Shown: positions 26,641 to 28,481 of the stretch, in pieces | Layout: every line of letters starts with the position of its first letter | Numbering within the stretch: position 1 is the stretch's first letter | Assembly (NCBI GenBank): GCA_964016885.1 | Contig: OZ024741.1 | Span: 297,538,001 to 297,602,000, forward strand | Length of the DNA: 64,000 nucleotides | DNA from: Eledone cirrhosa | Lineage: Eukaryota | Reading direction: 5' to 3' | Made by a program: the position numbers and the translations under genes | The notes under the pieces: generated by a model | Told to the model about the DNA's origin: nothing | The model's input: only the letters and a program-made list of their open reading frames with translations | The model's database searches: none

Positions 26641-28481
<1,841 letters not shown>

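Follow-up and report, generated by a model that had tools for sequence, protein, structure and literature searches.

How did a sequence consisting of nothing but the two ends of one transposable element come to lie inside a microsatellite? This question is raised by a 23-nt insert, TTGTTATACTTTTCAGAAACGAA, found at positions 26918-26940 of a 64-kb stretch of the Eledone cirrhosa genome (64,000 nt, the whole of the DNA analysed here and called the window below). The insert lies inside a compound (TA)n/(TG)/(CA) tract. Its two halves are exact copies of the two ends of family H, a Penelope-like element (PLE): the left half is an inverted copy of the end of the element core, and the right half is a direct copy of the end of the tail. 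We call the tail end site A and the core end site B; the latter is the core/tail boundary and the stopping point of tail-less arms. Maximal exact matching within the window placed the reverse-complement partners of the left half at 36382-36393, 50701-50712, and 63640-63651, and the partners of the right half at 36441-36452, 50760-50771, and 62946-62935 on the minus strand. The left match reaches 15 nt (26915-26929) if the ATAT common to the target is counted. The identities, the geometry, and the family assignment are shown by the sequence analysis, and they bear out a sequence-only reading of this DNA, which took the insert to be made of two family-H termini: there is an exact 12-nt match on either side, and the 47 nt of family H that separate the two halves on the element are absent.

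Two details of that reading had to be corrected. It described a TT microhomology between the halves, but only a single T (26929) is common to both; the left half supplies TTT, the right half supplies TT, and the insert holds four T. This 1-nt overlap is at chance level, and the ATAT at the target side amounts to 4 nt. The reading also matched the left half to the tail-less arm ending at 63651. The 12-mer there is indeed exact, but an extra CAA precedes the TA run, so this arm end is not exactly like the end of the mini-insert. An internal look-alike of the right half, a 10-mer at 36170 and 50479, was rejected as its source; it is shorter than the tail-end match, which is 12 nt, or 16 nt with the flank.

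Chance matching in AT-rich DNA was ruled out by shuffle comparisons of the joint pattern and of the single 12-mers. The joint pattern (8 + 8 nt, gap of 0-30 nt) occurred once in the window against a shuffle mean of 0.01, with a match in 1 of 100 shuffles. The right 12-mer had four matches, all in family H, and none in 100 shuffles. The left 12-mer, with up to one mismatch, had seven matches against a shuffle mean of 0.88, namely five exact family-H sites, one diverged relative (9657), and one unrelated site (58866). The sequence-only reading had also proposed a search for equivalent mini-junctions of other families. An exact 8 + 8 scan of the window with ten end sets found family H only and nothing for the other nine. 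However, alignment revealed one larger and diverged equivalent at 16155-16331, which the exact scan missed because that copy has diverged. The mini-junction evidence stands at one event within the 64-kb window.

By our own mask, TA-type microsatellite makes up at least 28% of the window, with transposon fragments lying between the tracts, and some of the repeats may be of a cephalopod kind. At the insert, the phase of the tract and its TG-TA-TG-(TA)4-CA unit are unbroken across the 23 nt. The insert is possibly flanked by a 12-bp target-site duplication (Table 1). Taking out one 12-bp copy restores the dominant unit of the tract, in which CA or CC follows TG(TA)4 in 13 of 14 cases, the exception being the insert. 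Under a simple null this duplication is not significant, since 67% of 324 local cuts yield 12 nt or more.

Table 1. Features of the 23-nt insert, its host tract, and the related insertions in the window
Feature	Position	Strand	Remark
Host compound (TA)n microsatellite	~26641..28482		Equal higher-order unit on either side of the insert
Possible 12-bp target-site duplication, left copy	26906..26917	+	Longest match
ATAT	26915..26918		Present both in the TA run of the target and in the element, immediately beyond site B
Core end of family H (site B), 12 nt, inverted	26918..26929	-	Exact match
Tail end of family H (site A), 12 nt	26929..26940	+	Exact match
Possible 12-bp target-site duplication, right copy	26942..26953	+	
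Family-H copy, 5′-truncated	36109..36452	+	Putative hammerhead core at 36198; full tail at 36394-36452
Family-H copy, 5′-truncated	49984..50771	+	Putative hammerhead core at 50512; 59-nt tail
Foldback of family H, with its tail-less arm on plus and its tail-bearing arm on minus	62934..63653		270/272 identical in the aligned core
Larger analogue, hammerhead-bearing family D	16155..16331		Compared with foldback 13875-14249

Three insertions in the window (36109-36452, 49984-50771, and both arms of 62934-63653) supply four family-H arms or copies, and the identity among their matched bases is about 93-99%. A (TA)n run stands at the end of every copy, and 62934-63653 is an inverted truncated copy with a one-sided tail. 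The motif of a putative hammerhead core, including a stem II of 6 bp, was recognized in all four arms or copies spanning the region. Among the Rfam matches listed (150 of 476), there was no hammerhead, only microsatellite- or hairpin-driven miRNA matches below the gathering score. The longest copy, 49984-50771, retains the final 77 endonuclease (EN) codons at 49985-50218. For this 77-aa ORF end, Pfam returned nothing significant, and 0 of 30 candidates passed in a word-index search against longer proteins; a full HMMER search recovered 105 relatives at E ≤ 0.001. GIY-YIG was matched in 4 of 15 scanned relatives, one of them above the curated cut-off, and in the alignment YIGETSRS stands upstream in the relatives, while the family-H query has two His that are invariant. 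In addition, a Cys linker of the CX2-5CxxC type precedes the EN in the aligned relatives, in a region that lies outside the window copy. In an Atlas search the leading clusters were unnamed, and GIY-YIG occurred in 15% of the members of the nearest named cluster. All family-H copies in the window stop before they reach the reverse transcriptase (RT) domain. Judged by sequence, family H, named a PLE in the sequence-only reading, is a canonical C-terminal-endonuclease (EN+) PLE on the strength of the putative hammerhead core and of a GIY-YIG/CCHH-type ORF end assigned indirectly through homologues. By the clade descriptions in PMC8557442, it looks most like Neptune/Nematis. Meanwhile, a diverged relative of family H lies at 9599-9700 and ends at 9599; in it, 14 nt around site B are exact and the tail end is different. 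This suggests that site B may be a conserved recognition element.

What kind of event could leave such an insert? The halves are neither complementary to each other nor overlapping on the template. Their orientation is head-to-head with one tail, the same as in family H's own foldback 62934-63653. In other words, an inverted internal segment is joined to a direct 3′ segment of one element with an internal deletion, an arrangement that fits twin priming in the L1 sense. We consider it probable that the 23-mer is an abortive twin- or dual-primed insertion of a Neptune/Nematis-type PLE, in which both target ends were extended by about 12 nt and end-joined; the extension and joining of both ends had been put forward in the sequence-only reading, and it is also in our judgment the best explanation. 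The GIY-YIG endonuclease would cut the (TA)n tract on both strands, at points that probably lie some 12 bp from each other. One 3′ end would prime reverse transcription at site A, and the other, paired through ATAT, would prime at site B, 59 nt upstream. Each cDNA would halt, or be trimmed back, at about 12 nt. Finally, host end-joining would unite both cDNAs over the one common T, and the product would hold an inverted site-B end and a direct site-A end without the 47 nt between them. The pairing role of ATAT is a possibility. We infer that the insert was born short, and we infer likewise the number of RNAs and RTs that took part.

Both ingredients of this mechanism have precedents. In vitro, the purified Poseidon PAc protein of Anolis carolinensis cleaves either target strand and extends both; its RT has two neighboring start sites on the RNA, one at each boundary of the tail, and it is predicted to be a dimer (PMC11167929). 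Two start sites and extension of both strands are known from this other PLE. PAc resembles family H in the two sites bounding the tail, the AT-rich target, and the hammerhead upstream (PMC11167929). However, it differs in clade, the relatives of family H carrying the CX2-5CxxC linker and being Neptune/Nematis-like. Furthermore, the PAc start site reportedly shares no homology with the DNA that is cut (PMC11167929), whereas site B of family H has ATAT; pairing through ATAT may therefore be dispensable. A joined two-ended product is not described for PAc in the available sections of PMC11167929.

The second precedent is twin priming of L1, for which Ostertag and Kazazian (2001) is cited. Like the 23-mer, twin-primed L1 insertions consist of an inverted internal segment and a direct 3′ segment with a gap, and among the L1 events described as twin- or dual-primed are some whose non-inverted part is very short and some whose junction lacks microhomology (PMC2912911, PMC2837659). 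L1 events show short microhomologies and target-site duplications (PMC2912911, PMC2837659), and the 23-mer has a 1-nt junction and a possible 12-bp duplication. L1 uses its internal site opportunistically, with poly(A) for the first primer (PMC2912911, PMC2837659); here the internal site does not vary within a family and is used repeatedly, and the enzyme belongs to a GIY-YIG PLE. Taken together, the two-site starts of PAc and the twin or dual priming of L1 predict the geometry of the 23-mer, if both RTs abort.

We also looked at the other two-ended inserts in the window, using 39 hand-picked islands that cover 41 of its 57 segments. Ten of the 39 islands combine an inverted arm that reaches one edge with an unpaired tail on the opposite side. 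Nine inverted inserts were parsed; 51974-52948 was mis-parsed and left out of the arm counts. Independent PLE marks are present only for families H and D, for the Hydra-like 40355 and 4212/53699 sets, and for 51974, and the others were assigned by architecture. In the nine parsed inserts, the tails measure 30-164 nt and the tail-less arms 11-320 nt. In seven, the template positions at which the two arms stop differ by no more than 36 nt, with middles of 1-36 nt, and the tail-bearing arm of the other two is about 1 kb longer. Five of the nine have 2-4 nt common to the flank and the element past site B, a point for twin priming. In the 10 other two-ended inserts (the nine parsed and 16155-16331), the tail-bearing segment is never shorter than 69 nt.

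Two inserts lack any template overlap, the 23-mer and 16155-16331, and the latter is its best sibling in the window. Here, an inverted core end of about 88 nt is joined to about 82-86 nt of tail alone, without overlap. The tail segment halts 6-11 nt from the core/tail boundary (site B) of 13875-14249. This is where a second primer would sit, as L1 twin priming predicts (PMC2912911).

At 52978-53162, an 11-bp hairpin stands at the island edge and is followed by 161 nt. This is possibly a foldback with a minimal tail-less arm of 11 nt. The 11-nt arm favors twin priming to the extent that very short arms do occur. Meanwhile, a LINE fragment at 13164-13654 carries a twin-priming inversion whose internal arm ends at a TATA of the element, with a 15-nt overlap (19 nt with TATA) and short templated pieces at the junction 13494-13520. 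From its motifs we take this fragment to be RTE-like. Its twin priming used an internal TATA, so internal priming by (TA)n ends does happen in this genome. In addition, the solo 5′-truncated copy at 47411 and the center of foldback 53699-53888 (53750-53755), both of one family, have the same template start position, which hints at a fixed RNA end or an RT stop.

Some points stand against twin priming. It is represented by a single event, and the 1-nt overlap at the junction is not diagnostic. The empty result of the exact scan for nine of the ten end sets, the non-significance of the target duplication under the simple null, the reported lack of homology at the PAc start site, and the minimum of 69 nt for tail-bearing segments of the other inserts weigh on the same side. 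Furthermore, near-symmetric arms such as those of the seven inserts are not predicted by independent extension unless both RTs reach a common RNA 5′ end.

The strongest competitor, which we regard as unlikely but well worth weighing, is that the 23-mer is a deletion remnant. A foldback like 62934-63653 would have lost its palindromic center and most of its tail through hairpin- or cruciform-induced breakage followed by end-joining, and the two outermost 12-mers would remain. No complex insert is more frequent in the window than the foldback (10 of the 39 islands examined), breaks induced by inverted repeats are documented (PMC3855049, PMC8053094), and many Adineta PLE copies were put out of action through microhomology-mediated deletions (PMC3846280). 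Neither the 26918 nor the 16155 insert has any symmetry, as expected of survivors of palindrome deletion. The same termini and the same target duplication are expected here as under twin priming, so the duplication cannot tell a primary mini-insert from a deletion remnant. However, the deletion would have to be very lopsided, beginning 12 nt inside one edge and reaching 47 nt past the hairpin base on the opposite side. By a rough estimate, a uniform deletion of the 720-bp foldback would leave 12 nt or less on both sides with a probability of about 0.001-0.008. The microhomology is just 1 nt. In addition, diverged foldbacks with 89-91% arm identity are intact nearby (61548, 60568), and deletion is therefore not rapid.

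A much less probable alternative is that site B is an attachment point and not a priming site, and that the 23-mer is a heavily resected fold-back intermediate. A cDNA primed at the tail end would fold back, or the RNA would prime itself; copying would proceed to the first AT-like stretch, which would join the other target end. Self-priming has been proposed for palindromic junctions of inverted pLTRs (PMC3846280) and EN-mediated resolution for the tail (PMC8557442), and near-symmetric foldbacks with short middles, as in the seven parsed inserts, would suit such copying. However, snap-back of one cDNA cannot directly give the 23-mer, because its halves are neither complementary nor overlapping on the template, and a second deletion step is demanded. 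Moreover, the long Hydra-like copy at 4212 is tail-less and its island has no inverted arm, and RT initiates at both tail boundaries in vitro (PMC11167929).

Least credible are the explanations that invoke a chimeric assembly, a patch left by templated repair, or two independent micro-insertions of opposite orientation at one TA site: the (TA)n tracts of the window have been hit repeatedly and short templated pieces do occur at 13494-13520, but both halves would have to be one family, with its two exact termini in canonical orientation, and the phase and unit structure of the tract are continuous across the insert.

Abortive twin or dual priming thus remains our preferred reading. Nevertheless, the 23-mer taken alone is a single repeat scar that has no function and does not decide how the inverted repeats and the one-sided tail arise. 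The claim that it is the cleanest evidence for two initiation sites is not supported, as biochemical evidence already exists (PMC11167929) and a single 23-bp scar could also come from later deletion of a foldback.

Much of the structure is known already. PLE copies with inverted 5′-truncated pLTRs, a one-sided tail, and (TA)n targets have been described, and target-site duplications of 8-10 bp have been reported for Adineta PLEs (PMC8557442, PMC3846280). The 23-mer shares the head-to-head inverted ends, the one-sided tail, and the (TA)n target with them. However, unlike in the published inverted pLTRs, each half is 12 nt long, and the absence of template overlap between them leaves no palindrome. 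The family-H tail measures 59 nt, whereas 30-40 bp are quoted for published PLE tails (PMC8557442, PMC3846280). Since the two start sites, the one-sided tail, and the inverted truncated pLTRs are known, the 23-mer is an extreme variant of a known structure, and its non-overlapping geometry is modestly new. Our literature search, of limited coverage, found no description of such minimal PLE junctions and no paper proposing twin priming or a two-ended model for PLE inverted ends. The genomic ends figured in the supplement of PMC11167929 may bear on novelty.

How PLE inverted repeats and the one-sided tail form is called an open task in PMC8557442. Self-priming, resolution by the endonuclease, and two RT start sites are the published ideas for PLE ends. 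Non-overlapping junctions between site A and site B are the sole product class that separates priming by two target ends from fold-back copying. Because they discriminate the two routes, a cheap genome-wide test is available in PLE-rich animal genomes, and the 23-mer is useful as a pointer to it, not as proof. Tentatively, and with more doubt than about the 23-mer itself, we suggest that PLE integration might be programmed twin priming, in which a probably dimeric RT-endonuclease would use both ends of a double-strand cut and two fixed, family-specific RNA sites. Abort of both RTs would then give the 23-mer. If the tail-end RT halted at the second primer, 16155-16331 would result. If it displaced its way through and both RTs reached the RNA 5′ end, one-tailed symmetric foldbacks would be formed. 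Such a scheme, if true, would replace self-priming as the source of inverted pLTRs.

Several other elements were found in the window. Two Hydra-clade-like PLEs lie at 4212-7562 (ORF at about 5407-7563, minus strand) and 40355-41863. Their hammerhead-like cores, at 4312 on the minus strand and 41777 on the plus strand, have TTGAGAA in place of CTGANGA, and the former has a long stem-II loop. These cores are presumably of the U3-A8 type variant. Both elements carry the RWR, DKT, and CxCX5C motifs as in PMC8557442. A degraded PLE at 16740-19207 has a weak GIY-YIG match (18185-18859, minus strand), and a hammerhead-bearing fragment at 60773-60977 (60894, minus strand) is related to it. A few short islands in TA tracts (60464-60486, 30524-30620, 61386-61490, 13023-13144, and 14277-14425) are without a convincing parent in the window. 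In addition, a lone exact piece of 19 nt at 49215-49233, also in a TA tract, comes from the family 38169-38772/53929-54528/54659-55094 and ends about 27 nt short of the end of that family. APE-type LINEs lie at 23198-26419, 19220-21808, 32924-35606, 42205-44989, and 48065-48596, all in TA tracts; RVT_1 and endonuclease matches were found in the two that were scanned, and within one family four copies share 97-99% identity.
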